This document shows, piece after piece, positions 7,295 through 55,838 of a stretch of 64,000 nt of DNA; within the stretch, counting starts at the first letter, position 1, and each line of letters starts with the position of its first letter. The position numbers were made by a program, and so were the translations under genes. Origin of the DNA: Natator depressus (taxonomy: Eukaryota); NCBI RefSeq assembly GCF_965152275.1, contig NC_134246.1:34532151-34596150 (forward strand), given 5' to 3'. A model generated the notes under the pieces. It did not search any database and was not told where the DNA came from. It saw only the letters and a list, made by a program, of their open reading frames with translations.

Positions 7295-8389
7295 CTGGGT
7301 CTATGACGGGGAGGACTTTGTCGGCTTGGTTGGGGAGATGGCACCGTTCCTCCAGCGCCTGACTGTTAGGGCCTTCCAGAGGCAGCTGGTGAGCCAGGAG
7401 TACCTGGCCGAGCCACTGCCCAGGTGGGTCATCATCAAGGACATGGTGGAGAAGGAGCTTCCTGACCCCCATGTCAGAATGGAGCTTTGACAGGGCACCC
7501 CAGCTATCATCACCTTCCAGGGACCCCGCCGGCAGGTGGCCGAGGCAGAGAGCCGGTGCCAGCAGCTGCTCAGGGCGTTCCAGGTCCTGTCGGTGCCCGT
7601 CTCGCCTCTCCAGGCGCGCTTCATCCAGGAGCACTGAGAGGATGTCTTCACCCCCAGCTTCTTCCTGGACTGGGGCATTGCCACCATCCTAGAGCTCCCA
7701 GACGGTGACTCAGGGATTGAGCTGGCCTGGGACCTCCCCGCTGGGCCGGCGCCCTCTGAGGGCATCTCAGTGGCTGGGCTGGAGCAAGAGAAGCTGCAGC
7801 ATGCAGCGGAGCTGCTGCAGGGCCTGGTGGGCTGCCGGACGGTGCTGATTGAGGAGGGCGTGCACTGGGTCACGCAGGGTCAGGAGTGGGCCGAGCTGCT
7901 GGCCGGGCTGGGCGCCTGGCAGGATGTGTCCCTGCACTGTGCCGCGAGCCAGGAGCAGCTGGTGGTGGTGGGCTTCCAGCCCTATGTGGCCCAGGCGGAG
8001 GCAGCCATCCGGGAGTATTTGCAGAGTAAATCACTGGCCGAGGAGCAACTGGACGTCCCCCGGCCAGAGCTGGCAGAAACCGGGGTGCAGCTGCTGCGCC
8101 TTATGGACTGGGAGCACCTCCAGGTCGCCGTCCAGCTGCACCCCAACCCTCGGGTGCTGTCCCTGGGGCTGCGGGGCCTCCTGCACCACCTGCAGTTGGC
8201 CAGCAGGGCCATCAAGGCTGACCTGGAGTCCCTGGTGCTGGGCACACTGCCCATCAGGGCCAGGCCTTGGGCGAGCACCTCTGTGGGGAGGGGGCGACCC
8301 TCCTGCAGGACCTGGCCCAGCAGCTCTGCTGTGTGGTGAGCCTGCGAGGAGACCCCCCTACAAATGGCCCATCCAGCACCTGTGGGCAG
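7239..8389 (+). pseudogene. 3' part of the large PARP14-like exon. It is in the same frame as 4195-4432 once CR1 and the TSD are removed. It carries two in-frame TGA codons (7488, 7635) and a frameshift near 8255-8270.
   Basis: Frame 0 continues as [17 protein letters not shown]...HVRMEL*QGTPAIITFQGPRRQVAEAESRCQQLL...QEH*EDVFTPSFFLDWGIATI...LVLGTLPIRA. It then shifts to LGEHLCGEGATLLQDLAQQLCCVVSLRGDPPTNGPSSTCGQ, followed by gtgaga. Both stops are consistent with CGA>TGA changes. Confidence 0.5.
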
Positions 8390-8903
8390 GTGAGAGCTGT
8401 AGGGGGCAGCCTGAGGGCGGGCAGGCCGCCCAGGGTCGCTGGGTTTGTCAGCGTCAGAGACATGGGAGCTGGTGCTACAAGAACTGGGAAGGGGGCTGTC
8501 TGGGCTGAGAGGACTGGACGCCTGGGACCCATTTCAGGTCTGAGAGGGCAGTGGGGTCTAGTGCGTGGAGCAGGGGGGCTGGGAGCTAGGACTCCTGGGT
8601 TCTCTGCTGGCTCTGGGAGGGGAGTGGGGTCTAGTGTTTAGAGTGGGAGCTGGGGCGGTGTGTGGGTTCTATTCTCTGCTTTGCCCCTGACTTCCTGCCT
8701 CTCTCCCCTTCTTTGTGCCTCAGTTTCTGGGTCTGCGAACCTGGCGAGTCGCCATCCCGCCCAGCCAGGTGTCTGTGTTCCCATGGCAAGGCAGGGCACC
8801 TGAGGCTTGGGGCAGGGGTTTGGGGGAGCAGCACGGCCATGGGCTGCATGGAGGAGCCAGTGCCCACTGTGCCTGCTTCACCTGGCTCTGTCCTTCTCCG
8901 CAG

Positions 8904-8958
8904 GGCAGAGCTCTGCAGGCTCCCAATGCCGCAAGGAAGCCCCAGAAGGTGCAGGCAG
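8904..8958 (+). pseudogene. Small PARP14-like exon (55 nt).
   Basis: tccgcag|GGCAGAGCTCTGCAGGCTCCC...GCAGGCAG|gtaaga; the open frame is continuous with its neighbours. Confidence 0.35.
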
Positions 8959-9138
8959 GTAAGAGCAACACAGGGACCTGGAGGGCTGGGCCGCACTCCC
9001 AGTCCATAGCCCCCTGCTAACCTAGCCCTGGGCCCCCTCCAGCTCTGCCAGTACCCCTCACTCCTGACCCGCTGCCCCTGCTAACCGAGCCCCACTGGTG
9101 CTGACCCACTTATTCAGGACCCCTCTCTGCGTTCCCAG

Positions 9139-9671
9139 GGGCCCCCGAGGGGCTGGAGCTCCGCATGGTGGGCCAAGAGCCTGATGTGGGCCAGGTGAAG
9201 GCAGCCGTGGCCGGCTTCATGGCCCAGTTCCACGACGAAAGCATCTGCAACGTGGAGCTGGTGGCCGTTGGCACCCAGGCCCTGCGGGAGCTCAGCCAGG
9301 CCTCACGGTACCACTTACCCGTCAGCCTCCAGCGCCTGCCGGGCAATGTGCTGCGGGTGCGGGGCGCCTGGGAGGATGTGGCCAAGGCCGTGGCCGCTGT
9401 CCACGCCAGGATCCAGGCTGCCCAGTGCCAGCGGGTGGAGGCCGAGGTGCTGTACGGGCTGGTAAAGTGGCAGCACCTGGCCCCGGCCGGCTGGCGTCCC
9501 TTTAGTGTGGCCACCAACCAACAGCTGGAGACGGCATATGCAGAGATCGAGTGGGACGGGCAGAGATCGAGTGGGACGGGCAGCGGGTGGAGATCGACCT
9601 GCTCAAGGCAATGGGCGTTGCGCCAGGCACTGGGGCCCTCATCCACCTCCGCCGGGAGATCTGCCTGTTGG
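9139..9671 (+). pseudogene. PARP14-like exon with a WWE-like domain, carrying a frameshifting 20-bp tandem duplication at 9541-9580.
   Basis: Acceptor ttcccag|GGGCC, donor TTGG|gtgagg. Length is 533 nt including the duplication and 513 nt without it. The read is ...WQHLAPAGWRPFSVATNQQLETAYAEIEWDGQ, then the duplicated cagagatcgagtgggacggg, then RVEIDLLKAMGVAPGTGALIHLRREICLLG. Confidence 0.5.
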
Positions 9672-9949
9672 GTGAGGAACCATCCCCCTTCCAAAGACAC
9701 CTTCCCCACTGCCCCACTGCTGGAGGGGCACCGGTGTGGGACTGGCTGCCTTGGGGGCAGGGAATAGGCCATGGCTCCGTTCCCCTCCAGGGGGTGCCAG
9801 CTCCCATCCAACCTCAGGGGACTGGGAATGGGGCAGGGAATGGGGCACGGGGCCTTTCCCCTCCTGGGGGTGCCAGCTCCCATCCAGCCCCAGGGCAGGG
9901 ACTGGGCCTGGGGCGGCTCCCCACTGACAGACCCCATCTCTCATTGCAG

Positions 9950-10086
9950 ACAGATGCCTTGCCCTGCACTGGGAGCCCATGGGCGAGAGCCTGGTGAGGC
10001 TGGTGGAGCTAGCGGAGCGCTCGGAGGAGTACCGGGAGATGGCTGAGGGGTTTAAGCGGATGGCCCTGGGCTACTGCATCCTCCAC
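9950..10086 (+). pseudogene. PARP14-like exon (start of the catalytic region).
   Basis: tcattgcag|ACAGATGCC...CTCCAC|gtgagt. It encodes ...ESLVRLVELAERSEEYREMAEGFKRMALGYCILH. Confidence 0.45.
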
Positions 10087-10475
10087 GTGAGTGTGAGGGG
10101 CTGGGAGGCTCTGGGGCTGGGGCTGAGAGACACCCCCTGTGGGTCCCAGAGCCCAGTCAGGGGGAGAGAGGAATCTCTCCTAGCCCCAGCTAGGGCGGAG
10201 GAGTTCAGTGAGCGGGGGCTGCCCTGGCACTGCCTGGTTGGGGGGGATGGGACAGAGGTCTTTGGAGGGCTGTCTGTGGGGGCAGAAAGGCCAGACGGCC
10301 ACGGTCATTGGGGGGTGTCCTCTAACGGAGCTGCAGGAGATTGGGGACCTGGGACTGAAGCTCAGGCCAGGGCAGGATGGGAAGACCTCCAAAGGCTGGG
10401 TGCCCCCCCATCCCACATGGCGGTGCCCTTGGCAGCTCCTGGCCATGCCCACGGTCCCTACCCTGCCTCCCGCAG

Positions 10476-10648
10476 ATCCAGAGGGTGCAGAACCGGGTCC
10501 TGTGGGTCTCCTATTGCTGGCAGTGCCGTTGGATGGAGGAGAAGAACCCGCCGGGCGAGCTCAACGAGCATCTCCTCTACCACGGCACGCAGCCCGAGAA
10601 CAGGCACTCCATCCAGGAGATCGGCCTCAGGATCACCTGTCGCAAAGG
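10476..10648 (+). pseudogene. PARP catalytic-domain exon carrying the conserved His (LYHGT).
   Basis: cccgcag|ATCCAGAGG...CGCAAAG|gtgggt. It encodes IQRVQNRVLWVSYCWQCRWMEEKNPPGELNEHLLYHGTQPENRHSIQEIGLRITCRK. Confidence 0.5.
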
Positions 10649-10734
10649 TGGGTCTGGGCCCCCGGGGGACTTCTGGGCTGGGGGCACCAGGACTGTATGC
10701 TGTCCCCGCCCCCCGGGCCACCCAGATGGGAACT

Positions 10735-10965
10735 GGGGCCCCCTAGAGGGGACAAGCCCCGTGTCCCATTTCCTGCCCCCCTTAGCCAGCCAATCCCCAC
10801 CCTGGGGCTGGATGGGAGCCGGTGCCCCCTAGAGGGGAAAGGCCCCATGTTTCCGCCCCACTTGAGGGGAAAGGTTCTGTGTCCCATTCCTCACCCCCCA
10901 GCACCAGCCAGTCCCCTGCCCTGGGGCCGGTTTGGGGCCGGTGCCCGCCCTAGGAAAAGGGCCCT
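10735..10965. repeat. GC-rich intronic tandem repeat with a ~75-bp unit, about 3 copies. A related array lies in inverse orientation at 9770-9900.
   Basis: Units of the form ccctagaggggacaagccccgtgtcccatttcctgcccccttagccagccaatccccaccctggggctggatgggagccggtgc. They generate spurious overlapping ORFs. Confidence 0.55.
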
Positions 10966-11769
10966 GTCATAAATATAAAGGGAAGGGTAACCACCTTTCT
11001 GTATACAGTGCTATAAAATCCCTCCTGGCCAGAGGCAAAATCCTTTCATCTGTAAAGGGTTAAGAAGCTCAGGTAACCTCGCTGGCACCTGACCCAAAAT
11101 GACCAATGAGGGGACAAGATACTTTCAAATCTGGAGGGGGCGGGGGAAAGGCTTTTGTCTGTCTGTGTGATACTTTTGCCGGGAACAGATCAAGGATACA
11201 AGCCCTTCAACTCCTGTAAAGTTAGTAAGTAATCTAGCTAGAAATGCATTAGGTTTTCTTTGTTTTGGCTTGTAAATTCGCTGTGCTGGAGGGAATGTGT
11301 ATTCCTGTTTTTGTATCTTTTTGTAACTTAAGGTTAGAGGGATTCTCTATGTTTTGAATCTGACTGCCTGTGAGATTATCTTCCATTCTAATCATACAGA
11401 GTGTTTCTTTTATCTTTGTTTTGTTCTTCTAGTAAAGTTCTGTTTTTTTAAGAATCTGATTGGGTTTTGAGGGTCCTAAGAAACCCAAGCTGGTCTGTGC
11501 TCAACTTGTTTATTCTCAAGCCTCCCCAGGAAAGGGGGTGTAAGGGCTTGGGGGGATTGCTGGGGGAAGAGGAACTCCAAGTGGTCCTTTTCCCTGGTTC
11601 TTTGTTAAAGCGCTTGGTGGTGGCAGCATACGGTTCAAGGACAAGGCAAAGTTTGTGCCTTGGGAAAGTTTTTAACCTAAGCAGGTAGAAATAAGCTTAG
11701 GGTCTGTCAAGGTTCCTTCCCCACTCTGAATTCTGGGGTACAGATGTGGGGACCTGCATGAAAGACCCT
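10965..11769 (-). mobile_element. Solo LTR of the Gmr1-like family in reverse orientation. The terminal ~65 bp (11705-11769) sit in forward orientation, a terminal inversion. It is inserted into the 75-bp intronic tandem array.
   Basis: It starts tgtcataaatataaagggaagggtaacc, the reverse complement of the LTR 3' end at 43900-43930. After ...ataagcttaggg, the sequence at 11705 reads tgtcaaggttccttccccactctgaattctggggtacagatgtggggacctgcatgaaagaccc, which is the LTR 5' end in forward orientation. Confidence 0.65.
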
Positions 11770-24155: not shown

Positions 24156-25316
24156 GTGAGTGATGAGGACATGGACACAGACTTCTATCAAAGCAGGGGC
24201 CCTGGCAATGTGGGCATCATGGTGCTAAAGGGGCAGGTTCATGCGGTGGAACGCCGATTCTGGGCTTGGGAAACAAGCACAGACTGGTGGGATGGCATAA
24301 TGTTGCAGGTCTGGGACGATTCCCAGTGGTTGCGAAACTTTCGAATGCGTAAGGGCACTTTCATGAAACTTTGTGACTTGCTTTCCCCTGCCCTGAGGCA
24401 CAAGAATACCAAGATGAGAGCAGCCTTCACAGTTGAGAAGCGAGTGGCGATAGCCCTGTGGAAGCTTGCAATGCCAGACAGCTACTGGTCAGTCGGGAAT
24501 CAATTTGGAGTGGGCAAATCTACTGTGGGGGCTGCTGTGATGCAAGTAGCCAACGCAGTCAAAGATCTGCTGATATCGAGGGTAGTGACCCTGGGAAATG
24601 TACAGGTCATAGTGGAGGGCTTTGCTGCAATGGGATTCCCTAACTGCGGTGGGGCCATAGATGGAACCCATATCCCTATCTTGGCACCAGAGCACCAAGC
24701 CGGCGAGTACATAAACCGCAAGGGGTACTTTTCAATAGTGCTGCAAGCTCTGGTGGATCACAAGGGATGTTTCACCAACATCAATGTGGGATGGCCAGGA
24801 AAGGTACATGACGCTCACATCTTCAGGAACTCTGGTCTTTTTCAAAAGCTGCAAGAAGGGACTTTATTCCCAGACCAGAAAATAACCATTGGGGATGTTG
24901 AAATGCCTATATGTATCCTTGGGGACCCAGCCTACCCCTTAATGCCATGGCTTATGAAGCCATACACAGGCACCCTGGACAGTAGACAGGAGCTGTTCAA
25001 CTACAGGCTGAGCAAGTGCAGAATGGTGGTAGAATGTGCATTTGGACGTTTAAAAGCGCGCTGGTGCAGTTTACTGACTCGGTTAGACCTCAGCGAAACC
25101 AATATTCCCACTGCTATTACTGCTTGCTGTGTGCTCCACTATATCTGTGAGAGTAAGGGGGAGATATTTATGGTGGGGTGGGAGGTTGAGGCAAATCCTC
25201 TGGCTGCTGGTTTCGCACAGCCAGACACCAGGGTGGTTAGAAGAGCACAGGAGGGCGCGGTGCTCATCAGAGAAGCTTTGAAAACCAGTTTCATGACTGG
25301 ACAGGCTACGGTGTGA
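24156..25316 (+). CDS. Harbinger DDE transposase (DDE_Tnp_4 / HARBI1-like), intact 386-aa ORF.
   Basis: Candidate catalytic residues are AIDGTHIPILAPEH (D), ILGDPAYPLMPWLMKPY (D) and VVECAFGRLKARW (E), with the usual spacing. There are no internal stops. Confidence 0.75.
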   Translation: MSDEDMDTDFYQSRGPGNVGIMVLKGQVHAVERRFWAWETSTDWWDGIMLQVWDDSQWLRNFRMRKGTFMKLCDLLSPALRHKNTKMRAAFTVEKRVAIALWKLAMPDSYWSVGNQFGVGKSTVGAAVMQVANAVKDLLISRVVTLGNVQVIVEGFAAMGFPNCGGAIDGTHIPILAPEHQAGEYINRKGYFSIVLQALVDHKGCFTNINVGWPGKVHDAHIFRNSGLFQKLQEGTLFPDQKITIGDVEMPICILGDPAYPLMPWLMKPYTGTLDSRQELFNYRLSKCRMVVECAFGRLKARWCSLLTRLDLSETNIPTAITACCVLHYICESKGEIFMVGWEVEANPLAAGFAQPDTRVVRRAQEGAVLIREALKTSFMTGQATV

Positions 25317-26625: not shown

Positions 26626-27297
26626 TTAAAAGGTACACTCACCAGAGGTCCCTTCTCTTCCTGGCAGGTCTGGGAGGCAGCCTTGGGTGGGTCCAGGGGT
26701 GACTGCCTCCAGGTCCAGGGTGAGAAACAGTTCCTGGCTGTCGGGAAAACCGGTTTCTCCGCTTGCTTGCTGTGAGCTATCTACAACTTCATCATCATCA
26801 TCTTCCTCGTCCCCAAAACCTGCTTCTGTGTTGCCTCCATCTCCATTAAAGGAGTCAAACAACAAGGCTGGGGTAGTGGTGGCTGAACCCCCTAAAATGG
26901 CATGCAGCTCATCATAGAAGCAGCATGTTTGGGGCTCTGAATCGGAGCAGCCGTTTGCCTCTCTGGTTTTCTGGTAGGCCTTAAGTTTCACGCGGCATTG
27001 CTTCAGGTCCCTGTTATGGCCTCTGTCCTTCATGCCCTGGGAGATTTTGACAAATGTTTTGGCATTTCGAAACCTGGAACGGAGTTCTGATAGCACGGAT
27101 TCCTCTCCCCATACAGAGATAAGATCCCATACCTCCCATTTGGTCCATGCTGGAGCTCTTTTGCGATTCTGGGACTCCGTCGTGGTCACCTCTGCTGATG
27201 AGCTCTGGCCAGCGTGACAAGCTGCAGGTGAACATGCAAACAGGAATTTGAAATTCAAAAGTTCACGGGCCTTTTCCTGTCTACCTGGCCAGTGCAT
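26626..27297 (-). CDS. Harbinger Myb/SANT-like DNA-binding protein, first exon (223-aa open frame). A GTGAGT splice donor on the minus strand at 26637-26642 suggests a downstream exon.
   Basis: RKRAPAWTKWEVWDLISVWGEESVLSELRSRFRNAKTFVKISQGMKDRGHNRDLKQCRVKLKAYQKTREANGCS is Myb/SANT-like, followed by an acidic tail (DEEDDDDEVVD). The minus-strand sequence reads gacctctg|gtgagtgtacc. Confidence 0.6.
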   Translation of the reverse strand: MHWPGRQEKARELLNFKFLFACSPAACHAGQSSSAEVTTTESQNRKRAPAWTKWEVWDLISVWGEESVLSELRSRFRNAKTFVKISQGMKDRGHNRDLKQCRVKLKAYQKTREANGCSDSEPQTCCFYDELHAILGGSATTTPALLFDSFNGDGGNTEAGFGDEEDDDDEVVDSSQQASGETGFPDSQELFLTLDLEAVTPGPTQGCLPDLPGREGTSGECTF

Positions 27298-28638: not shown

Positions 28639-31600
28639 CATAGAATCATAGAATATCAGGGTTGGAAGGGACCTCAGGAGGTCATCTTGTCCAACCCCCT
28701 GCTCAAAGCAGGACCGATCCCCGACTAAATCATCCCAGGCAGGGCTTTGTCAAGCCTGACCTTAAAAACTTCTGGGGAAGGAGATTCCACCACCTCCCTA
28801 GTGAAAGCATTCCAGTGTTTCACCACCCTCCTAGTGAAAAAGTTTTTCCTAATATCCAACCTAAATCTTCCCCACTGCAACTTGAGACCATTACTCCTTG
28901 TTCTGTCATCTGCTACCACTGAGAACAGTCTAGAGCCATCCTCTTTGGAACCCCCTTTCAGGTAGTTGAAAGCAGCTATCAAATCCCCTCTCATTCTTCT
29001 CTTCTGAAGACTAAACATCCCCAGTTCCCTCAGCCTCGCCTCATAAGTCATGTGTTCCAGTCCCCTAATCATTTTTGTTGCCCTCCGCTGAACTCTTTCC
29101 AATTTTTCCACATCCTTCTTGTAATGTGGGGCCCAAAACTGGACACAGTACTCCAGATGAGGCCTCACCAATGTCGAATAGAGGGGAACTATCACGTCCC
29201 TCGATCTCCTGGCAATGCCCCGACTTATACATCCCAAAATGCCATTGGCCTTCTTGGCAACAAGGGCACACTGTTGACTCATATCCAACTTCTCGTCCAC
29301 TGTAACCTCTAGGTCCTTTTCTGCAGAACTGCTGCCGAGACATTCGGTCCCTAGTCTGTAGCGGTGCATGGGATTCTTCCGTCCTAAGTGCAAGACTCTG
29401 CACTTGTCCATCAGATTTCTTTTGGCCCAATCCTCCAATTTGTCTAGGTCCCTCTGTATCCTATCCCTACCCTCCTGCGTATCTACCACTCCTCCCAGTT
29501 TAGTGTCATCTGCAAACTTGCTGAGGGTGCAATGCACACCATCCTCCAGATCATTAATGAAGATATTGAACAAAACCGGCCCCAGGACTGACCCCTGGGG
29601 CACTCCACTTGATATCGGCTGCCAACTAGACATGCAGCCATTGATCACTACCCGTTGAGCCCGACAATCTAGCCAGCTTTCTATCCACCTTATAGTCCAT
29701 CCAGCCCATACTTCTTTAACTTGCTGGCAAGAATACTGTGGCAGACCGTGTGAAAAGCTTTGCTAAAGTCAAGGAACAACACGTCCACTGCTTTCCCTTC
29801 ATCCACAGCGCCAGTTATCTCGTCATAGAAGGCAATTAGATTAATCAAGCATGACTTGCCCTTGGTAAATCCATGCTGACTGTTCCTGATCACTTTCCTC
29901 TCCTCTAAGTGCTTCAGAATTGATTCCTTGAGGACCTGCTCCATGATTTTTTCAGGGACTGAGGTGAGGCTGACTGGCCTGTAGTTCCCAGGATCCTCCT
30001 CCTTCCCTTTTTTAAAGATGGGCACTACATTAGCCTTTTTCCAGTCATCTGGGACCTCCCCCGATCGCCATGAGTTTTCAAAGATAATGGCTAATGGTTC
30101 TGCAATCACATCCGCCAACTCCTTTAGCACTCTCAGATGCAACGCATCCGGCCCCATGGACTTTTGCTTTTTGCTTTTCTAAATAGTCCTGAACCACTTC
30201 TTTCTTCACAGAGGGCTGGTCACCTCCTCCCCATGCTGTGCTGCCCAGTGCAGCAGTCTGGGAGCTGACCTTGTTCGTGAAGACAGAGGCAAAAAAAGCA
30301 TTGAGTACATTAGCTTTTTCCACATCCTCTGTCACTAGGTTGCCTCCCTCATTCAGTAAGGGGCCCACACTTTCCTTGACTTTCTTCTTGTTGCTAACAT
30401 ACCTGAAGAAACCCTTCTTGTTACTCTTAACATCTCTCGCTAGCTGCAACTCCAGGTGTGATTTGGCCTTCCTGACTTCACTCCTGCAAGCCTGAGCAAT
30501 ATTTTTATACTCATCCCTGGTCATTTGTCCAATCTTCCACTTCTTGTAAGCTTCTTTTTTGTATATAAGAGCAGCAAGGATTTCACTGTTAAGCCAAGCT
30601 GGTCGCCTGCCATATTTACTATTCTTTCTAGACATCGGGATGGTTTGTCCCTGTAACCTCAATAAGGATTCTTTAAAATACAGTCAGCTCTCTTGGACTC
30701 CTTTCCCCCTCATGTTATTCTCCCAGGGGATCTTGCCCATCAGTTCCGTGAGGGAATCAAAGTCTGCTTTTCTGAAGTCCAGGGTCTGTATTCTACTGCT
30801 CTCCTTTCTTCCTTTTGTTAGGATCCTGAACTTGACCATTTCATGGTCACTGCCTCCCAGGTTCCCATCCACTTTTGCTTCCCCTACTAATTCTTCCCGG
30901 TTTGTGAGCAGCAGGTCAAGAAGAGCTCCGCTCCTAGTTGGTTCTTCCAGCACTTGTACCAGGAAATTGTCCCCTACATTTTTCAAAAAGTTCCTGGATT
31001 GTCTGTGCACCGCTGTATTGCTCTCCCAGCAGATATTAGGGTGATTGAAGTCTCCCATGAGAACCAGGGCCTGCGATCTAATAACTTCTGCGAGTTGGCG
31101 GAAGAAAGCCTCGTCCACCTCCTCCCCCTGGTCTGGTGGTCTATAGTAGACTCCCACCACGACATCAGCCTTGTTGCTCAGACTTCTAAACTTAATCCAG
31201 AGACTCTCAGGTTTTTCTGCAGTTTCATACTTGAGCTCTGAGCAGTCATACTGCTCCCTTACATACAGTGCAACTCCCCAACCTTTTCTGCCCTTCCTGT
31301 CCTTCCTGAACAGCTTATATCCATCCATGACAGTACTCCAGTCATGTGAGTTATCCCACAAAGTCTCTGTTATTCCAATCACATCATAATTCCTTGACTG
31401 TGCCAGGACCTCCAGTTCTCCCTGCTTGTTTCCCAGGCTTCGTGCATTTGTATATAGGCACTTGAGGTAACCTGATGATCGCCCCTCTTTCTCAGTATGA
31501 GGCAGGAGCCCTCCCCTCTCACGCGCTCCTGCTCGTGCCTCCTCCCGGTATCCCACTTCCCCACTTACCTCAGGGCTTTGGTCTCCTTCCCCCGGTGAAC

Positions 31601-34440: not shown

Positions 34441-35486
34441 AGGGAGTATACCTTCTGGGATGTCATGTCAGGGTGACAGATGGGTGCCTCCATCCCCCTC
34501 AGAAGAGAGTCACAAGCCACTACTACCCTACGTTTCTCCTGGGAGTGGTGGCTGCAATCCTCCCAGCCTTGGGAATAAATGGCTTCTCCTCCACCTTTGG
34601 GTGTGATTCCTCATCGCTCATTGCCAGGGCAGCATAACGGTTCCTCATCACTAAGGTGCGTGGGTTGGGAGAAGGGGTGGACTACTGCCTGCTGCCAGAA
34701 GTAACCAGCAGCCAGTGTCCTCCCTGTGACAGAGCCATATCCTCCTCCCCCGGTGGAGTTACAGAAGTTCTCTCTAGTGGCATAGCTTCCTCAGCCTTGG
34801 ACATATCCATATGAATCATCTCAATGAATTCCTCATGGGCACGGATGCTCCTCAGCCTAGCCATCTCCACCTCTAGCTCTCCCACCTGCTTCCTGAGAGA
34901 TTACACCAACAGGCACCTTTCACCAGCATGGACCCCCCAGCCTGGCTTTCTGAGAGTGGGAAATGCAGGCCACAATCTCTGCAAATCCACACCAGGCTCT
35001 GCATAGAGGCATCCATGGTCAGGTTGTCTGTCTGATGAAGGTGCTGGTGGAGGAGACAGGAGCAGTGGTGGCACTGGCGATGTGGCCTTTCCAAACCATA
35101 GCAATTATATTACAACTCCCTCTTACAAACCCTCTATCAAAGTCCCCTGTTTGCGGTTACGAGGACACTAATGGTCAGCAGATTATGAGTTTTCAAATGA
35201 TATCTCACCAGGCATACTTTGTACAAAATTTACCATGGTCTTGTAAAGGGGATGGATATAGGGGCTCCACAGTCTGTCACACTGTGTTCAGTTCCTGACT
35301 GCTGTTAGGGTTAGATTTAGGTTATTTATGAGACATCAGATATCCCAGGCTCAGTTCATTTTTATTAGTCAAAGACAAAACAGCACAACATAGAAAGGTA
35401 AAGGTTAATACACCACGAATCCAGGGGGAAGTTCTGCTGCTTCACTTCTGTTCCATCTATCTTGCAGAAATTCACCCTCTTATATA

Positions 35487-35575
35487 GAATCATAGAAGAT
35501 TAGGGTTGGAAGAGACCTCAGGAGGTCATCTAGTCCAACACCCTGCTCAAAGCAGGACCAAGCCTATACCACGTG
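35487..35575 (-). mobile_element. Isolated CR1 3'-end fragment.
   Basis: gaatcatagaagattagggttggaagagacctcaggaggtcatctagtccaacaccctgctcaaagcaggacc. Confidence 0.5.
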
Positions 35576-36232
35576 TTTACAAAAAAGAGACAAAATAAAT
35601 TCCATTCTCATAATCTTTCTACTTGTGAAGTTCATTTCATGGCATCTCTGTTTACACAACTGTTAAGCTAAAGACAAGCCATTATTTCATCAATCAAAGA
35701 AGAGATATTCAATAACAAGCATTCCCATTCTTGGTCTCCTCCACATCAGGACACATATTCTAAGGTTCAGCAGACCAAAGCAAGCGGACACACACAATCC
35801 ATCATTCAACAATATACTAAGATTCCACCTGAGTACAAAGGATTATGGATACAGAGCATTATAAGCACTTTGATTCATCCACAAAGGATTATGGGAGTCT
35901 GGTTCATCTCCCAACAGATGCCAAGAACTTTGCTTCAACTGTTAACACTGTTACAAACTTCAGTCTAAGTCACTTGAAGTCTATTTACAAAGGTATTTAG
36001 GCACTAAAAGATGAAGGTTAGTATCTAGTGCAATTTTTTTTAAATGTCATATAATTTAGGCACCTAAATCCCAAAGGGTTTGGGGCACCTAAGCACTTTT
36101 GGAAAATCCCACTAGGTGTATAAATACCTTTAACAATCCAGCCCTTAGTACCTTAGTTCCCATTTGTAGAATGGGGATAATGTGTCTTCCTTTCTCCCAC
36201 ATATTATTGTCTGTCTGGTCTATTCAGACCAT

Positions 36233-36400
36233 GTGTATATGTGTGTGTGTGTGTGCTGTGCTATGCTAGAGATGTATGTGTGTGTGTGTGTTTCCCCCTG
36301 TTGGAGGGTATGAGGACAGCTCAGTGTTTGTGTGTGTGTGTTGCCCCTGCTGGAGGGAATGAGGACTGCTCAATTTGTGTGTGTGCACACGCGTGTGCCA
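36233..36400. repeat. GT-rich microsatellite / low-complexity region.
   Basis: gtgtgtgtgtgtgtgctgtgctatg...gtgtgtgtgtgtgtttcc. The ORFs across it are spurious. Confidence 0.8.
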
Positions 36401-37630
36401 CTCTACGGGAGGAAAAGGTGCAGTCTCACGTCTGATTGCTGTATCCGTGTGTGTGACAGAACAAGAAGGAGAGCACAGCGGGGAAAGCAGAGAGTTACCA
36501 ATAAGCAAACACCCAGCCAAGATACAGATGGGTCGTCAAGTGGCAATTCCAAAAGGGACAATGGGGACAAACACATGAGTTTATAGTTGAATCTGGCCTG
36601 ATCTGCAGCAGTGCTGGCTGACCGACATGCCCACTCAGGCTACTCGGAGATGTGGGCTCTTTCTTCAGCTGCTCCGGCTCAGGACGGCATAGCTATTAGG
36701 TTTAATTTTAAAACCAGGGGTATGTTAGAATTTACCTTTAAAGGCTTCCTAATTAAACCCAGAGAACCTAAGGGATTGTGTCCTGGGAGGCTCAGAATTC
36801 AGGTGAAATACACCGACTCTACCACATCCACGGCATACACAGGCACCCTGACTTGCTGCAAAGTTGTTTGAATTTCTTTTATATGCAAGGGATCTGTTCC
36901 ACTTGGGTAGGATTTTTCTCTTCCCCCATGGAACTGAAAGGAGAATACCATTCAAAACAAACAGAATTCAGACATGAAGGCTCAGATTCAGGTCTTAGTT
37001 ATTCAAAGACAATTATTGAGTAACCACGTTGAAGTCAAATGTCTTCTTCCAGATTTACACAGGTGAAGTCTGAGTCACAGTGCTCTGTTAGTATTTTATT
37101 TTTAAAATAGACAGCTTGACAGATACAGGAGTGTGTATGGGGATAGGTAGATAGATAGCTAGATGAATGAGTGTGTATTGGGATGGATGGATGGATGTTG
37201 ATGTAAATTGGCCAAGCTTAATTAAAGTCAATGTGGCTTCACCAACTCATACCAGCTGATGAAACCAAAAACACTATCAGAGCTTGTCGTTTTTAGCCTA
37301 GAAAAATGCAGGCTGAGAAGGATCTGGTTGCGCTCTATAAATACATCAAAGAGGTAAACTCCAGGGAGAGAGATGAGCTATTGAAGCTAAAGAACAAAGT
37401 CGCCACATGAACACATAGACAGGAGCAGCTTCCCCATCGGATGAGTTGGGGGGCAGACAACCTATCCAGTTAGAAACTGGAGCTGGGTCAGTTTATGAAT
37501 GGGATGATATGACAGGGCTACCTGTAGTAGCCAGAACTGGACTGGACTGGACTGAATGACCCAGGAGGTCCCTTCCATTCCTGTGTCCCTATGAGCTGGC
37601 CCATAATATTTTTTCCTCTTCCTTCTGCAG

Positions 37631-38575
37631 ATGAGCTATACCAGTGAAACTGCACAGAGGAATCACAGCACAGTGACCCAACTCATTTATCTTGGCTTCT
37701 CCCAGAATCCAGTGACACGAGCAATACTTTGCGTAGGTTTCTCCATTATCTACACCATCTCCCTGATGGGCAACAGCATCATCAACCTCATCACAATGCT
37801 GGACTTGGCCCTCCACACCCCTATGTATTTCTTCCTCTGGAACCTGTCCTTTTTGGAGAGCTGCTACATCTCTGTCACCATCCCCAAGATGCTGGTCAAC
37901 TTTGTCTCTGAGGAGAGGACCATCTCCTTCACTGGGTGTACCATCCAGATGCATTTCGTCCTTTCTCTTGGGACAGCAGAGTGCTACCTGCTGGCCGCCA
38001 TGGCATACAGGGCCATCTGCTCCCCTCTGCATTACCCCACCATTATGAATCCCAGAGCCCGTGCCAAGATGGCTGCTGTCTGCTGGCTCTGTGGAATCCT
38101 GATGCCCATGAGCAAAGTGATTTGTATCTTCTCCTTGCCCTACTGTGGGCCCAACAAGATCAACCACTTCTTCTGCGACATCCCCCCTGTGCTGAAGCTG
38201 GCCTGTGGGGACACCTCCAGGAGCGAGGTCTTCATTGTACCGATCAGCCTAATGATCTCTGTCATCCCCTTCCTAATGGTGCTGGTGTCCTATGCCTGCA
38301 TCCTCTACACCATCCTGAAGACAACTTTATCCGAGGGAAGGCACAAAGCTTTCTCCACCTGCTCCTCCCACCTCACCGCAGTCATCTTGTTCTATGGTTC
38401 AACCTGTGCTATGTACCTGCAGCCTAAGTCCAGCCACGTAGCGGACATGGACAGAGTGGTGGCCCTATTTCATACCGTCGTCATCCCCACGTTAAACCCT
38501 ATGATCTACAGCCTAAGGAACCAGGAGGTGAAGGCTGCTCTGAAGAGACTGAGGGGGAGGAAAAGATTTTCATGA
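37631..38575 (+). CDS. Olfactory receptor (class II-like), single exon, 314-aa open frame. The DRY motif is deleted (MAY-RAIC where MAYDRYVAIC is expected), so it may be non-functional.
   Basis: LGFS, PMYFFLWNLSFLESCY, KAFSTCSSHL, PTLNPMIYSLRNQEVKAALKRL and an N-terminal NHS glycosylation site are present. At 38003-38017 the sequence reads gcatacagggccatc, encoding AYRAI. Confidence 0.8.
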   Translation: MSYTSETAQRNHSTVTQLIYLGFSQNPVTRAILCVGFSIIYTISLMGNSIINLITMLDLALHTPMYFFLWNLSFLESCYISVTIPKMLVNFVSEERTISFTGCTIQMHFVLSLGTAECYLLAAMAYRAICSPLHYPTIMNPRARAKMAAVCWLCGILMPMSKVICIFSLPYCGPNKINHFFCDIPPVLKLACGDTSRSEVFIVPISLMISVIPFLMVLVSYACILYTILKTTLSEGRHKAFSTCSSHLTAVILFYGSTCAMYLQPKSSHVADMDRVVALFHTVVIPTLNPMIYSLRNQEVKAALKRLRGRKRFS

Positions 38576-38626
38576 AAGATTTAAAAGCTTTGGAGCTGTC
38601 CAGTTCAAATTAGGACTTTTTATCAA

Positions 38627-38632
38627 AATAAA
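38627..38632 (+). terminator. AATAAA poly(A) signal candidate 52 bp downstream of the OR stop.
   Basis: tatcaaaataaattaaaaat. Confidence 0.3.
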
Positions 38633-38754
38633 TTAAAAATTACCAAACAATTTCTTCTGGCTGGGTTTTCACATTACAGCATCTTTTCTCTCCTCTCATG
38701 TCTATGGTTCTGATGTATGAGCACCTGTCTGAAAACTAAAGCCAGGCAGCTGAA

Positions 38755-38756
<2 letters not shown>

Positions 38757-38832
<76 letters not shown>
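38757..38832. repeat. (TTTC)19 microsatellite.
   Basis: Perfect run. Confidence 0.95.
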
Positions 38833-38833
<1 letters not shown>

Positions 38834-39339
38834 ACAGTTACTTAGGAATAAATGTACTGATGCCAATGTTGACACCCTGGGGGCTTGTTCACATGGGGAT
38901 ACTCAAGAAAATTAATCCAAATTAACTAAAGGTGTGGATTAGCTAAACTACATTAAACCCGTCTGTGGACACTTTCATTTGGAATTACAGTGGCCTTACT
39001 TTGGAAGTGGAATTAAACTAACCTGAATTAAGGCTATATTAATTTTGAATGAGAGTGTCCACACATGGGTTTAATGCAGTTTATCTAAACCTCTTTTAGT
39101 ACACATTTGGGCCTGTTCTACACTAAAAAGTTAGCTTGACCCAGCTTTATTGCTCAGGGGAGTGAAAAATCCACACCCCTAAGCAGCATAGTGAAGCTGT
39201 TCTAATCCCCAGTGTAGTCAGTGCTAGTTGGCCAGAAGAATTCTTTCATCCACCTAGCTACTACCTCTTGGGGAGGTGGATTACCTGTACTGACAGGAGA
39301 ACCCCTCCTGTTCTCATAGGTAGTGTCTACACTGAACAT

Positions 39340-39400
39340 AAAAACAGCCATACTGGGTCAGATCAATGGTCCATCTAGCCCAGTATCCAGAGCTTAATTT
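39340..39400 (+). repeat. Short 5' fragment of the same ccatactgggtcagatcaatggtccatctagcccagtatcc family.
   Basis: acataaaaacagccatactgggtcagatcaatggtccatctagcccagtatccag. Confidence 0.4.
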
Positions 39401-39506
39401 GTGTTTGAGGCTTGCCAGGGCTGAGCCCTAGCATCTCTAGGCTTGAAAGTTCACAGCCCCAGCATGTCTGGTCTTGCTGTGTCAGACAGAGGCACCAACT
39501 TTCTAT

Positions 39507-39672
39507 TAAGAAAAGGAGTATTTGTGGCACCTTAGAGACCAACAAATTTATTTGAGCATAAGCTTTCGTGAAGTGAGCTGCAGCTCATGAAAGCTCATGC
39601 TCAAATAAATTGGTTAGTCTAAGGTGCCACAAGTACTCCTTTTCTTTTTGCGAATACAGACTAACACAGCTG
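39507..39672. repeat. Third copy of the palindromic hairpin repeat, flanked by the 12-bp direct repeat caactttctatt.
   Basis: aaaaggagtatttgtggcaccttagagaccaacaaatttatttgagcataagctttcgtgaagtgagctgcagctcatgaaagctcatgctcaaataaattggttagtctaaggtgccacaagtactccttttctttttgcgaatacagactaacacagctg. The flanks are ccaactttctatt|...|caactttctatt. Confidence 0.7.
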
Positions 39673-39957
39673 CAACTTTCTATTGTGTCAGGGGTGCTCT
39701 CCCCCGCTCTGCCCCAGGCCCTGCCCCCACTCCTCCCCTTCCCCAAAGGCCCCATGCCTTCCCCGCCTCTTTCTGCCCTGCTCTGCCATGCCCTGCCTCA
39801 TCCCACCCTGTTCTGCCCCCTCCCCTGAGTACACCCTGCCCTCGCTCCTCCCCGCTCTGTCCCAGTGCCTCCTGCATGCTGCTAAACAGATGATCACTGG
39901 GGAGAAAGGGGAAAGTTGATTGGGGATGGGTGATGAGCACCCACCATATTTTTTCAA

Positions 39958-41835
39958 CCCCTCTGCTCAAAACAGGACTAACCCCAACTAAATCATCCCA
40001 GCCAGGGCTTTGTCAAGATGGGCCTTAAAAAACCTCTAAGGATGGAGCTTCAACCACCTCCCTAGGTAACCCATTCACGTGCTTCACCACCCTCCTAGTG
40101 AAATAGTGTTTTCTAATATCCAACCTAGACCTCCCCCACTGCAACTTGAGACCATTGCTCCTTGTTCTGTCATCTGCCACCACTGAGAACAGCCAAGTTT
40201 CACCCTCGTCGGAGCCCCCCTTCAGGAAGTTGAAGGCTGCTATCAAATCCCCCCTCACTCTTCTCTTCTATAGACTAAATAAGCCCAGTTCCATCAGTCT
40301 CTCCTCGTAAATCATGTGCTCCAGCCCCCTGATTGCCCTCCACTGGACTATCTCTAATTTGTCCACATCCTTTTTGTAGTGGGGGCCCAAAACTGGATGC
40401 ATACTTCAGATGTGGCCTCACTAGTGCTGAATAGAGGGGAATAATCCCTTCCCTCCATCTGCTGGCAATGCTCCTACTAATGCAGCCCAATATGCCGTTA
40501 GCCTTCTGGGCAACAACAGCACACTGCTGACTCATATCCAACTTCTCATCCACTGTAATCCCCAGGTCCTTTTCTGCAGAACTGCCGCTTAGCCAGTCGG
40601 TCCCCGGACTGTAGCAGTGCATGGGAATCTTCTGTTCTAAGTGCAGGACTCTGCACTTGTGCTTGTTGAACCTCATCGGATTTCTTTTGGCCCAATCCTC
40701 CAATTTGTCTAGGTCACTGTGGACCCTATCCCTACCCTCCAGCGTATCTACCTCTCCCCCCACCCTTCCCCGATCAATTGCTGAGGGTGCAATCCATCCC
40801 ATCATCCAGATCATTAATGAAGATGTTGAATAAAACCGGCCCCAGGAATGACCCTTGGGGCATTCCACTTGATACTGGCTGCCAACTAGACATCAAGCCG
40901 TTGATCACTACCCATTGAGCCCGACAATCTAGCCAGCTTTCTATTCACCTTATAGTCCATTCATCCAATCCATACTTTTTTAACTTGCTGGCAATAATAC
41001 TGTGGGAGACTGTAACAAAAGCTTTGCTAAAGTCAAGGTATATCATGTCCACCACTTTCCCCATATCCACAGAGTCAGTTATCTCATCATAGAAGGCAAT
41101 CAGGTTGGTCAGGCGTGACTTGCCCTTGGTGAATCCATGTTGACTGTACCTGATCACCTTCCTCTCCTCCAAGTGCTTCAAAATGGATTCCTTGAGGACC
41201 TGCTCCATGATTTTTCTGGGGACAGAGGTGAGGCTGATCGGTCTGTAGTTCCCCAGATTCTCCTTCTTCCCTTTTTAAAAGATGGGCACTACATTAGCCT
41301 TTTTCCATCATACAGGACGTGCCCAGATCACCACCAGTTTTCAAAGATAATGGCCAATAGTTCTGCAATCACATCAGCCAACTCCATCAACACCCTCGGA
41401 TACATTGCATCCAGCACCCTGGACTTGTGCATGTCCAGCTTTGTTAAATAGTCCTTAACCTGTGCTTTCACGACTGAGGGCTGCTCACCTCCTCCCCATA
41501 CTGAGCTGCCCAGTGCAGCAGTCTAGGAACTTACCTTATCTGTGAAGACTGAGGCAAAAAAAGCATTGAATACTTCAGCTTTTTCACATCATCTGTCACT
41601 AGGTTGCAGTAAGGGGCCCACACTTTCCCTAACCTTCTTCTTGTTGCTATCATACCTGTAGAAACCCTTCTTGTTACCCTTTCCATCCCTTGTTAGCTGC
41701 AACTCCAACTGTGCTTTGGACTTCCTGATTACACCCCTGCATGCTTGAGCAATATTTTTATACTTGTCCCTAATCATCTGTCCAAGTTTCCACTTCTTGT
41801 AAGATTCCTTTTTGTGTTTAAGATCACTGAAGATT
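39958..41835 (-). mobile_element. CR1 LINE copy 3, degraded. ORF2 RT pieces only, truncated at both ends.
   Basis: 40025-40258 reads [14 protein letters not shown]...[11 protein letters not shown]. 40275-40868 reads KCRVLHLEQKIPMHCY...[16 protein letters not shown]. 40945-41208 reads [30 protein letters not shown]...[13 protein letters not shown]. Confidence 0.7.
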
Positions 41836-44691: not shown

Positions 44692-45342
44692 TTACTTTGG
44701 GACAGGCCACTTTTGGATAGCATCCACTTTGGCCTGTAGGGGGTTGATGGTTCCTTGACCCACCTGGTATTCAAGGTAAGTCACTCTGTTTAGACCTACT
44801 TGACACTTAGCCTTAACAGTTAGTTCTGCCTCCCTTTTGCTCTTGAAGGCTTTTTGTAGATGTTCCAGGTGTTCTGCCCAGGAATCCGAAAATATGGCCA
44901 CATCGTCAAGGTAGGCGACTGCATATTCTCCCAATCCCTCCAGGAGACCATTTACAACTTTTTGGAAGGTGGCGGGTGCATTTCGCAGCCCGAAAAGGAG
45001 CACATTAAATTCATACAGCCCAACATGTGTGATGAAGGCTGACCTTTCCTGGGCTGATTCATCTAGAGGTACCTGCCAGTACCCCTTGGTTAAGTCCAAG
45101 GTAGAGATGAACTGGGCCCGTCCCAGTTTCTCTAATACGTCATCTGTGCGTGGCATTGGATAGTTGTCTGGGCAAGTTACAGCATTTAGCTTACGGTAGT
45201 CCACGCAAAAACGTATCTCCCCATCTGGTTTGGGCACTACAACTACTGGAGATGCCCATGCACTGCCAGAGGGGTGGATTATACCCATCTGCAGCATATC
45301 CTGGATCTCCCGTTCTATAGCAGTTTTAGCTTGAGGAGACAC
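44692..45342 (-). CDS. Reverse transcriptase (Ty3/Gypsy type).
   Basis: WASPVVVVPKPDGEIRFCVDYRKLNAVT, LDLTKGYWQVPL, LLFGLRNAPATFQ, AYLDDVAIFS. Confidence 0.75.
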   Translation of the reverse strand: MSPQAKTAIEREIQDMLQMGIIHPSGSAWASPVVVVPKPDGEIRFCVDYRKLNAVTCPDNYPMPRTDDVLEKLGRAQFISTLDLTKGYWQVPLDESAQERSAFITHVGLYEFNVLLFGLRNAPATFQKVVNGLLEGLGEYAVAYLDDVAIFSDSWAEHLEHLQKAFKSKREAELTVKAKCQVGLNRVTYLEYQVGQGTINPLQAKVDAIQKWPVPK

Positions 45343-45620
45343 CCAGTAAGGTTGGTCTCTAAATGGGTGAGCATTACCTGTGTCAATGGAGTGTTATGCC
45401 CGTTCAGTCAGTCCTGGGGTGGCTGAGAACATTGACGCGTAGCTAGTGCACAGCTCCTTGATCTGCTGTCACTGCATACGCCCAAGGGTCATGGAGAGGT
45501 TCACCTCTTCCACATCACCAGCACTTTTCCCTTCGTAGTAGACACCTTCAGGCCACTCAGCGTCACCTCCTCCCTGGGCTGTAAACTGACAAACCTTTAA
45601 TTCTCTGGAATAAAAGGGAT

Positions 45621-46857
45621 TTAGAGAATTAATGTGGTACTCCTTAGGCTTTCAGTCTGAGGTGGGGAATGCTTTGAGATAACAGCTCCCAGGCACTCTT
45701 GGACCATGAATGGCCCTTCCCACGATGCTTCCATTTTATGGGCCTGGAGCGCTTTCAAGACCATGACCTGGTCTCCTACTTGGAAGAAACGCTCTCTGGC
45801 ATGTTTATCATACCAGGCTTTTTGCTCTTTTTGAGAGTCTTGTAGATTTTCTTTAGCAAGGGCTAAAGAGGTTAGGAGGGTGTTTTGTAGTTTGGGTACA
45901 AAGTCCAGAATGTTAGTTCCTGGAGAAGGTGTAAACCCCTCCCATTGCTGCTTCACCAACTGTAATGGCCCCTTAACCTCATGGCCATATACAAGTTCAA
46001 ATGGTGAAAACCCTAAACTGGGATGTGGTACAGCTCTGTAGGCAAAGAGCAACTGCTGCAACACTAGGTCCCAATCATTGGAGTGCTCATTTACGAATTT
46101 ACATATCATGGCCCCCAAAGTTCCATTAAACTTCTCCAGCAGGCCATTTGTTTGATGGTGGTAAGGAGTGGCAACCAAGTGATTCACCCCATGAGCCTCC
46201 CAAAGGCTTTCCATTAGTTCCTGCATCTGTAAGGATGTAGGAGGGCCAACCTACCTTGGCAAAAATGTCTGTTAGTGCCTGGCACACACTTTTAGCCCTG
46301 ATGTTGCTTAGAGCTACTGCTTCCGGCCATCGAGTGGCAAAATCCATGAAAGTCAGTATGTACTGCTTTCCTCTGGGTGTCTTTTTCGGAAAAGGACCCA
46401 GAATATCCACAGTTACTTGCTGAAATGGAACCTCAATGATGGGGAGTGGCTGGAGAGGGGCTTTGACCTGGTCTTGGGGTTTTCCCACTCTTTAGCACAC
46501 CTCACAAGAGTGGACATAGGTAGAAACATCCTTGCCCATTCCCTCCCAGTGGAACAACTTTCCCAAATGGTCTTTGGTTCTGTTCACCCCGGCATGGCCA
46601 CTAGGATGATCGTGGGCTAAGCTCAAGAGCTTGGCCTGGTACTTAGTTGGAACTACCAACTGTCTCTGAGGATGCCAGTCGTCCTGGTGTCCACCAGAAA
46701 GAGTTTCCTTGTATAAAAGTTCTCTTTCTACAACAAACCTGGATTGATTAGAAGAGCTGAGAGGCGGTGGGTTACTCCGTGCCATGCTCCAAGCTCTCTG
46801 GAGGCTTTCATCTGCTTCCTGTTCGGTCTGGAACTGTTCCCTTGATGTTGGAGACAT
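45621..46857 (-). CDS. Integrase (HHCC zinc finger plus rve catalytic core plus C-terminal part), three overlapping ORF pieces. It lies UPSTREAM of the RT in element sense.
   Basis: LAHDHPSGHAGVNRTKDHLGKLFHWEGMGKDVSTYVHSCEVC is the HHCC finger. VDILGPFPKKTPRGKQYILTFMDFATRWPEAVALSNIRAKSVCQAL...ILTDAGTNGKP is the D,D core. ATPYHHQTNGLLEKFNGTL carries the E. Confidence 0.7.
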
Positions 46858-47525
46858 CAGTTCTTAATTGGATTGTGGACCTGGGCTTGGTCCCTCTGGA
46901 AGCAATGCAGGTGATGGGCTGTTTCCGTTGACTGTGAACCACTCTCTGCTGGTGCACTATGTTGGGGTTCAGGCTCTGGCTGAGCCTCTTGTGTAGGGTT
47001 ATCTGCTGCTGCCAATGCAGGTTCGGTGGGGCCCTCTGGTGTTGGGGTTGCAAGCACTGGATTCAGTGCTGGCAATGGTTCTGGTTCTGGGACTGGCTCT
47101 GTCTGGGTCTCTGGGACTGGATCCACTACTGCTGTTGCAGACGTTGGCATGGGGTCTGGTTCCATCACCTCTGACTGGGTCCTGGTAGAAGTCTCCAGAA
47201 CAGAGCTAGGTGTGACAGCTTGCTTCACCTGGCTGCAGTTGACCATTCCCACCCTCTTAGCTAGCTTCCCATGATTGGCCAGGTCTTCCCCCAACAGCAT
47301 GGGGATGGGATAATCATCATAGAGTGCAAAAGTCCATGTTCCTGACCAGCCCTTGTACTGGACAGGCAACTTGGCTGTAGGCAAGTCAAAAGAGTTTGAC
47401 TTGAAGGGTTGAATCGTTACTTGGACCTCTGGGTCAATTAAATTGGGGTCCACTAAGGAAGCCGTGGATAGCTGACACTTGTGCTCTGGTGTCCCTCCAT
47501 GCTGTAACCTTCTTCCCACCCACAT
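46857..47525 (-). CDS. pol segment with protease-like region and a Pro-rich linker (222-aa open frame). The catalytic D-S/T-G is not clearly recognisable.
   Basis: LVDPNLIDPEVQVTIQPFKSN...YDDYPIPMLLGEDLANHGKLAKRV, followed by a PEPEP-rich linker. Confidence 0.4.
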   Translation of the reverse strand: MWVGRRLQHGGTPEHKCQLSTASLVDPNLIDPEVQVTIQPFKSNSFDLPTAKLPVQYKGWSGTWTFALYDDYPIPMLLGEDLANHGKLAKRVGMVNCSQVKQAVTPSSVLETSTRTQSEVMEPDPMPTSATAVVDPVPETQTEPVPEPEPLPALNPVLATPTPEGPTEPALAAADNPTQEAQPEPEPQHSAPAESGSQSTETAHHLHCFQRDQAQVHNPIKN

Positions 47526-54842: not shown

Positions 54843-55838
54843 TTATGGGTCTTCTTGATGAATCCTCGCTTGGCCTCCAGTTACTAATGGAGACAGCCAA
54901 TTAGGCCTTTTACTTATAATTTTCCTCAGAGCTTCTTTGACCTCCTTGTTTCTCAGACTGTATATAATGGGGTTAACCATAGGGGTAATCACCGTGTACA
55001 GCAGGGAAAACATTTTATTTAGGCCTGGAGACTGGCTGGCCGTGGGAACCGCATAAATAATGCCCAAGGTCCCATAGAACAAGGTCACCACGATGAGATG
55101 GGAGGAGCAGGTGGAGAAGGCTTTCTGTTTTCCCATGGTAGAAGGGACCCTGAGAATGGTGGACAGGATGTTGGCATAGGATACTACAGTCAGCAGAAAT
55201 GGGACCATGGTCACAACAGAGGCCATGATGAATGTGGTTGTCTTGGCCACATGGGCGTCAGCACAGGAGAGCTTTATGACCGGTGCTAGGTCGCAGAAGA
55301 AATGGTCGATTTCATTGGAGGCACAGAATGGCAACCTGAAGGTCAAGACAATGGTTAGTATGGGAGTCAGGAACCCACTTATCCAAGAACCTGCTGCCAT
55401 CTGCAGGCAAACCTTGGAGTTCATGATGGCCATGTAACGGAGTGGGCTGCAGATGGCTACGTACCGGTCATAAGACATCACCGCCAGGAGAAAACACTCA
55501 GTGATAGCCATGGAACTGAAGAAATAAAACTGGGTAATGCAGCCAAAGAAGGAGATTGCTTCATGTGCAGTAAGTAAAGTTCTTAGCATCTTGGGGGTGG
55601 TAGAAGCGGTGTACCAGATCTCGAGGAAGGAGAAATTTCCCAGGAAGAAGTACATCGGGGTGTGCAGGCTCCGGCTGTATGAGATGATGGCCAATATGAG
55701 GATGTTGCCAGCTAATGTCATGATGTAGACAGCTAGAAATAGCACAAAGAGAAGGATCTGCATCTCATGAAGATCCCCAAATCCCATCAAGATGAACTCT
55801 GCAAGGGCTGTCTGATTTCCTTCTGCTGCTCTGTCCAT
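54843..55838 (-). CDS. Olfactory receptor, single exon, intact 331-aa ORF with all canonical motifs.
   Basis: LMGFGDLHEMQ, PMYFFLGNFSFLEIWY, MSYDRYVAICSPLRY, KAFSTCSSHL, PMVNPIIYSLRNKEVKEALRKII, and an N-terminal NQT site. Confidence 0.85.
   Translation of the reverse strand: MDRAAEGNQTALAEFILMGFGDLHEMQILLFVLFLAVYIMTLAGNILILAIISYSRSLHTPMYFFLGNFSFLEIWYTASTTPKMLRTLLTAHEAISFFGCITQFYFFSSMAITECFLLAVMSYDRYVAICSPLRYMAIMNSKVCLQMAAGSWISGFLTPILTIVLTFRLPFCASNEIDHFFCDLAPVIKLSCADAHVAKTTTFIMASVVTMVPFLLTVVSYANILSTILRVPSTMGKQKAFSTCSSHLIVVTLFYGTLGIIYAVPTASQSPGLNKMFSLLYTVITPMVNPIIYSLRNKEVKEALRKIISKRPNWLSPLVTGGQARIHQEDP

Follow-up and report, generated by a model that had tools for sequence, protein, structure and literature searches.

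A 64-kb stretch of Natator depressus DNA (the window) contains an olfactory receptor gene of class II (family 10) whose sequence marks it as most probably a non-functional relic, a "cryptic" pseudogene with its frame still open. The product lacks the DRY motif at the junction of the third transmembrane segment (TM3) and the second intracellular loop (ICL2), and purifying selection is not detected in the sea turtles, where omega for the living Cheloniidae lies inside the range of neutral simulations. Since the gene fails on both counts, it is filed here as a probable cryptic, intact-frame receptor pseudogene. Its position and those of the other features of the window are collected in Table 1.

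Table 1. Features of the 64-kb window, with positions counted from its first nucleotide.
Feature	Position	Strand	Remarks
CR1-type LINE	4523..7294	-	uninterrupted 923-aa ORF with endonuclease and reverse transcriptase domains
Harbinger-type transposase, DDE_Tnp_4	24156..25316	+	386 aa, open
Harbinger-type partner, Myb/SANT-like DNA-binding ORF	26626..27297	-	223 aa, open
More degraded CR1 copies	28725..31556 and 40275..40868	-	
Polypyrimidine tract plus CAG, putative splice acceptor	37609..37630	+	abuts the ATG; kept in all turtles aligned
Olfactory receptor coding exon, class II, family-10-like	37631..38575	+	945 nt, ATG to TGA; ORF and Pfam
Deletion junction GCA TAC AGG (A125 Y126 R127)	38003..38011	+	alignment of 10 turtle sequences
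His281 codon CAT	38471..38473	+	Natator-specific Y281H in TM7; Tyr in 83/83 relatives
Retrovirus-like pol remnants	44692..47525	-	one ORF with a reverse transcriptase domain
Neighboring receptor	54843..55838	-	331 aa, MSYDRYVAIC intact; ORF; Pfam 7tm_4 E=7.4e-59

The ORF is a single coding exon of 314 codons plus TGA, and by profile a vertebrate olfactory receptor over all seven TM segments: Pfam 7tm_4 (PF13853) matches residues 37-307 (profile positions 1-276/280, E=2.7e-47), and 7tm_1 also matches (E=9.3e-30). Its nearest solved relatives are consOR2 (E=3e-95) and consOR5, and its relatives carry the database names OR10A/10C/10AG-like. The product is identical to N. depressus XP_074825982.1 (P0121), "olfactory receptor 10A7-like," which is present on two contigs. 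An NHS glycosylation site, G47-N48, and LHTPMYFFL are kept; further on there are SY in TM5, KAFSTCSSHL, and PTLNPMIYSLRN. Cysteines C103 (the conserved TM3 Cys), C182, and C192 are all retained, and the PMYFFL (TM2), KAFSTCxSHL (ICL3/TM6), and PxLNPxIYSLRN (TM7) motifs and the TM3 and ECL2 cysteines are thus all accounted for. The exception is MAYDRYVAIC (D3.49-R3.50-Y3.51 at the TM3/ICL2 junction): codons 124-130 (38000..38020) read M-A-Y-R-A-I-C, three residues short. An earlier reading made from the sequence only had described a 314-aa receptor with every hallmark but DRY, its TM3 ending in MAY-RAICSPLHY. ORF analysis, Pfam, and motif inspection bear out the description, and the translation reads as reported.

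The layout upstream of the ATG appears to be the usual receptor-gene arrangement, with one or more non-coding upstream exons, the splicing role of the acceptor being predicted from its sequence. A 15-nt element of other turtles, AATGCCCACATGCAA, is absent at 37604/37605 (+) in Natator and Chelonia only; the loss sits ~27 nt upstream of the acceptor, where a branch point would be expected. A tblastn search of the window found no receptor fragments besides the two genes. The CR1 copy at 4523..7294 is possibly young or active, and the ORFs adjoining the pol remnants look integrase-like and protease/gag-like, with no Pfam match at E<=0.001. The stretch 8000..11000 is GC-rich (66% GC), with long overlapping ORFs in several frames. 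It could be host-gene exons or a CpG island; the only ORF tested there (9165..9767) has no Pfam match.

Orthologues of the DRY-less gene were identified in nine other turtle genera, all of which entered the protein alignment. Macrochelys, Chrysemys, Trachemys, Chelonoidis, Mauremys, Gopherus, and Emydura each have one best match per species, 317 aa long and 84-90% identical; those of the soft-shelled Carettochelys and Pelodiscus are 320 aa long and 72-77% identical. The Chelonia mydas orthologue has 314 aa and is 98% identical to the Natator ORF. Identity to the next paralogues does not exceed 72%, and the flanks align with those of Macrochelys at ~7% divergence, which supports orthology.

In these nine genera the orthologues read MAYDRYRAICSPLHY where the Natator ORF is exactly 9 nt shorter; over a longer stretch, LLAAMAYDRYRAICSPLHY in the non-marine orthologues stands against LLAAMA---YRAICSPLHY in the window and C. 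mydas. These three residues (MAYDRYRAIC versus MA---YRAIC) are the sole internal gap in the protein alignment. In the DNA alignment of 10 turtle sequences (the window and nine loci), ATGGCCTATGACCGCTACAGG in non-marine turtles becomes ATGGCA---------TACAGG in sea turtles. The nine nucleotides that are missing, present in the other turtles, can be given equivalently as CTATGACCG or TGACCGCTA, and the residues lost as YDR or DRY. In the ancestral sequence the site contains a CTA...CTA microhomology. A synonymous change, GCC>GCA, has also altered the Ala codon at the junction. Both alignments thus uphold an in-frame 9-nt loss of the DRY triplet, as first proposed, rather than local divergence. 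Among 83 full-length relatives, D-R is kept in 82 and no gap occurs in this stretch; against the solved consensus receptors (8uy0, 9wpm), the DRY gap is the only one in the entire alignment. The loss of D-R-Y itself therefore stands, but the replacement of Val that the sequence-only reading implied by comparison with MAYDRYVAIC does not: R127 is simply the residue that follows DRY in the orthologues (DRY-R-AIC). For the same reason there is no compensating DRY-like pattern in what remains.

The deletion is found in Natator (two contigs), two C. mydas assemblies, Caretta caretta, Eretmochelys imbricata, and Lepidochelys kempii, that is, in all five cheloniid species with data (four at the DNA level; for L. 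kempii the evidence is a protein model). It is absent in the nine non-marine genera. The two C. mydas assemblies (GCA_000344595.1 and GCA_015237465.2), both with the gap, differ from each other by SNPs and so do not derive from one common sequence. No Dermochelys orthologue of this gene or its neighbor appears among the best 120 matches listed or in the 90% clusters. Being common to all five species, the deletion is older than the last common ancestor of living Cheloniidae, and hence than the Chelonia/Natator split at 33.6 Mya; the sea-turtle stem reaches back to ~104 Mya (PMC12448945). The suggestion that this might be a very recent pseudogene accordingly has the age wrong. The word pseudogene itself is supported by a stop codon common to Caretta and Eretmochelys, divergence at the flank rate, raised omega values, and changes at conserved sites.

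The frame is open in the window copy and in Chelonia, and disrupted in Caretta and Eretmochelys, which have in common a TGT>TGA change at codon 103, that of the conserved TM3 cysteine. The products annotated for these two, 191 and 208 aa long, are fragments truncated at the N terminus. Given the shared TGA and the truncated products, the gene is an unambiguous pseudogene in the Caretta/Eretmochelys sub-lineage. In L. kempii, whose protein model is flagged LOW QUALITY, the product (P0123) has at residues 103-106 an extra PSR after Cys103 (TGCPSRTIQ), exactly at the site of the TGA in Caretta and Eretmochelys. Either CCATCCAGA seems to have been duplicated in tandem, or the model introduced a repair.

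The open-frame copies also carry changes at conserved positions. By parsimony six are specific to Natator (D26N, H185P, T210S, S233L, V250A, and Y281H), and those in the sea turtles or Natator at near-invariant positions are F18L (F in 82/83 relatives), A104T, V250A, I52N, C144R, and L204P. The last, gained by Natator and Chelonia together, brings a proline into TM5. An open frame combined with deviations at conserved positions, the DRY Arg included, is the pattern of a cryptic pseudogene in the CORP sense, a class assigned here from the conserved positions in 83 relatives.

Parsimony places 48 synonymous and 23 nonsynonymous substitutions on the DRY-intact cryptodire branches, 16 and 18 on the sea-turtle stem, and 14 and 22 in crown Cheloniidae. 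In a maximum-likelihood branch codon model of our own (F3x4, kappa 5.5), omega goes from 0.12 on the background through 0.28 on the stem to 0.44 in the crown, the last being 3.6-fold above the background (p=0.0009). The open-frame Chelonini (0.40) and the stop-bearing Carettini (0.48) do not differ (p=0.81). Nonsynonymous changes make up 22/36 of the crown substitutions, a small count, against 70.5% expected if neutral (p=0.15), and 23/71 of those on the background (p=4e-11 against the neutral expectation). Relative to flank divergence, taken from pairwise blastn HSPs, coding divergence is 0.39-0.60 among DRY-intact turtles (all p<0.02) and 0.75-1.6 among sea turtles, with no ratio significant. 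Constraint is seen in the non-marine orthologues, and also in the neighboring receptor.

This second receptor, 17 kb from the DRY-less gene, serves as an internal control. Its protein is 100% identical between Natator and C. mydas, and Caretta, L. kempii, and Eretmochelys each have a full-length version. Across the sea-turtle tree it has accumulated 13 substitutions (5 nonsynonymous) versus 36 (22 nonsynonymous) in the DRY-less gene (p=0.0004). It has an unusual C-terminal extension of 20 residues (…NWLSPLVTGGQARIHQEDP). Outside the window there is a further Natator paralogue, 71% identical (P0046/P0132), annotated as a 246-aa partial sequence with MAYHFYRATC in place of the motif (DRY to HFY); its Caretta counterpart is labeled "LOW QUALITY PROTEIN." It is probably another decaying family-10 receptor of sea turtles.

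The sequence-only reading had also allowed for an atypical, possibly non-signalling receptor. On such a view Chelonia and Natator would still produce the DRY-less protein, and weak purifying selection would maintain it for a role without canonical G-protein activation: occupying receptor choice, some non-signalling or beta-arrestin-type activity, or an ectopic function. We consider this unlikely. It has in its favor a frame open in two lineages that split 33.6 Mya, a coding sequence with zero indels, the integrity of all the other receptor motifs and of the predicted splice acceptor, and an omega of 0.40-0.44, nominally <1 (likelihood ratio test for the crown, p=0.023). The p-value is not to be trusted as a sign of constraint, since the estimator runs low (median 0.61-0.64) when strictly neutral evolution is simulated with as many substitutions as were observed, and 12-15% of the runs give an omega of 0.44 or less. 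Once the omega<1 test is calibrated in this way, no positive support is left. Several observations speak against retention: the coding sequence evolves at the rate of its flanks, omega is the same as in the stop-bearing lineage, the invariant TM7 Tyr281 is changed in Natator, L204P lies in TM5 of both Natator and Chelonia, and the same gene has been lost outright in Caretta and Eretmochelys. It seems, from these sequences, decidedly improbable that Chelonia and Natator have gone on expressing a G-protein-dead receptor from an open frame for >33 My. If true, such a receptor would be nature's equivalent of the engineered DRY mutants; it might be chosen by olfactory neurons, which would then be "silent," or might act independently of G proteins.

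The open frame is unremarkable under neutrality. Flank divergence is ~0.7% (0.73%) for Natator versus Chelonia and 2.4-2.9% across the crown; there are ~15 substitutions from the crown ancestor to Natator, and about 8-15 per Natator or Chelonia copy. With 15-17 neutral substitutions, simulation gives a probability of 0.65-0.68 that no stop arises and the start is kept, and flank-derived indel-to-substitution ratios of 0.05-0.14 give a probability of 0.09-0.47 that no indel does, for a joint probability of roughly 0.06-0.3. Natator and Chelonia have no stop as yet because sea-turtle DNA changes so slowly. Zero coding-sequence indels on the whole crown tree is mildly unexpected under neutrality (P 0.006-0.17 at the same flank indel ratios of 0.05-0.14), but the stop-bearing Carettini are also without indels, and the flank ratio therefore probably overstates the indel rate of this non-repetitive exon. 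In the non-coding flanks (window positions 34631..41575 versus loci L001, L003, and L004), Natator and Chelonia are closer to each other (0.73% divergence) than Caretta and Eretmochelys are (1.86%), an order opposite to that of the published split dates (33.6 and 25.4 Mya, respectively). The mismatch may stem from rates that vary locally, or from an artefact of calibration in the published dates.

A canonically functional receptor, in which Y126-R127 together with stem substitutions such as C144R in ICL2 would compensate for the deletion, is very improbable. An Arg does remain one position from where Arg3.50 would sit, and some of the 18 nonsynonymous stem changes are in ICL2. Against compensation, a gap at this point is found in 0/83 relatives and in no solved receptor, constraint dropped after the deletion and was not restored, the gene was lost in Carettini, and a point change at the DRY Arg is already enough to inactivate a receptor (PMC1599758). 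An assembly or sequencing artefact or a misassigned paralogue, for which no support was found, has a negligible probability: the identical 9-nt gap in six independent assemblies of four species, with a fifth species at the protein level, excludes the sequencing error that had been raised as a concern, and the alignable flanks and the low identity of the next paralogues rule out paralogue confusion.

The history of the presumed pseudogene probably ran as follows. On the stem lineage of the sea turtles, before the living Cheloniidae split, a slippage-type deletion of 9 nt took the D-R of DRY out of the cytoplasmic end of TM3. In active class A receptors Arg3.50 of this motif touches the C-terminus of G-alpha, and with three residues fewer at the end of TM3 the helix is rotated and shortened where it joins ICL2. 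With Arg3.50 gone and the TM3/ICL2 junction displaced by three residues, G-protein activation would presumably have been abolished; purifying selection would have lapsed afterwards and the gene drifted at about the neutral rate. A stop codon has since arisen in the Caretta/Eretmochelys lineage, with none yet in Natator and Chelonia. Among the 60 conserved positions used by CORP, the DRY Arg has the highest weight, and in two inactive primate receptors with a point-mutated DRY, restoring the Arg rescued function; inactive receptors with an intact frame are a recognized class (PMC1599758). From this weight and this rescue, we infer that the deletion itself killed signalling and came first, with loss of constraint after it. 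The intermediate stem omega (0.28) fits a deletion part-way along the stem, but is only suggestive. The order could also be the reverse, constraint having relaxed first with the marine transition and the deletion being one neutral event among others. [quoted passage not shown]

A literature search found no paper describing this locus. The event is of an ordinary kind; the type of lesion, its age, its family-wide fixation, and the contrast between sub-lineages are particular to this locus. The closest parallels in kind are the cryptic olfactory receptor pseudogenes of the CORP analysis (Menashe et al., 2006; PMC1599758), which likewise have an open frame and deviations at the most conserved critical positions. 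Genes of this class are presumed inactive, and OR912-93 of human and orangutan regained function with the DRY Arg (PMC1599758). Their lesions are missense changes, recent in primates or still segregating, whereas that of the turtles is a three-residue in-frame deletion fixed across a family for >33 My. Sea turtles, like other secondarily marine tetrapods, have also lost class II receptors (Bentley et al., 2023; PMC9962930). There too class II receptors decay, and in the same lineage, but that loss is known from gene-copy counts, whereas here one gene is caught part-way. Such counts would score the locus as "intact" for Chelonia and Natator and as disrupted for Caretta and Eretmochelys.

Two further systems resemble the turtle protein. 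If expressed, it would be present without G-protein coupling, as is reportedly the case for the RDY mutant of the mouse odorant receptor I7 engineered by Imai et al. in 2006. That mutant is a laboratory construct with its residues scrambled and its length unchanged, while the turtle protein is predicted from its gene. Atypical class A receptors, such as the atypical chemokine receptors, have DRY altered or missing in an otherwise intact 7TM protein. Purifying selection on these receptors is clear, and scavenger or arrestin functions have been demonstrated for them; the turtle gene, by contrast, evolves at the neutral rate.

RefSeq lists the locus as an ordinary receptor in both open-frame species (Natator XP_074825982.1, Chelonia XP_007072054.1), and calling it functional, as the public annotation does, probably goes too far. 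Because the frames of dead turtle genes can survive for tens of millions of years, open-frame counts of "intact" receptors will overestimate the functional repertoire in slowly evolving animals such as turtles. In the unlikely event that the protein is expressed, receptor choice without signalling could be studied on an odorant receptor that lacks DRY by nature. For the sea turtles themselves, the locus represents a dated, stepwise loss of a class II receptor after the return to the sea: deletion of a motif, and then a nonsense mutation in one sub-lineage.
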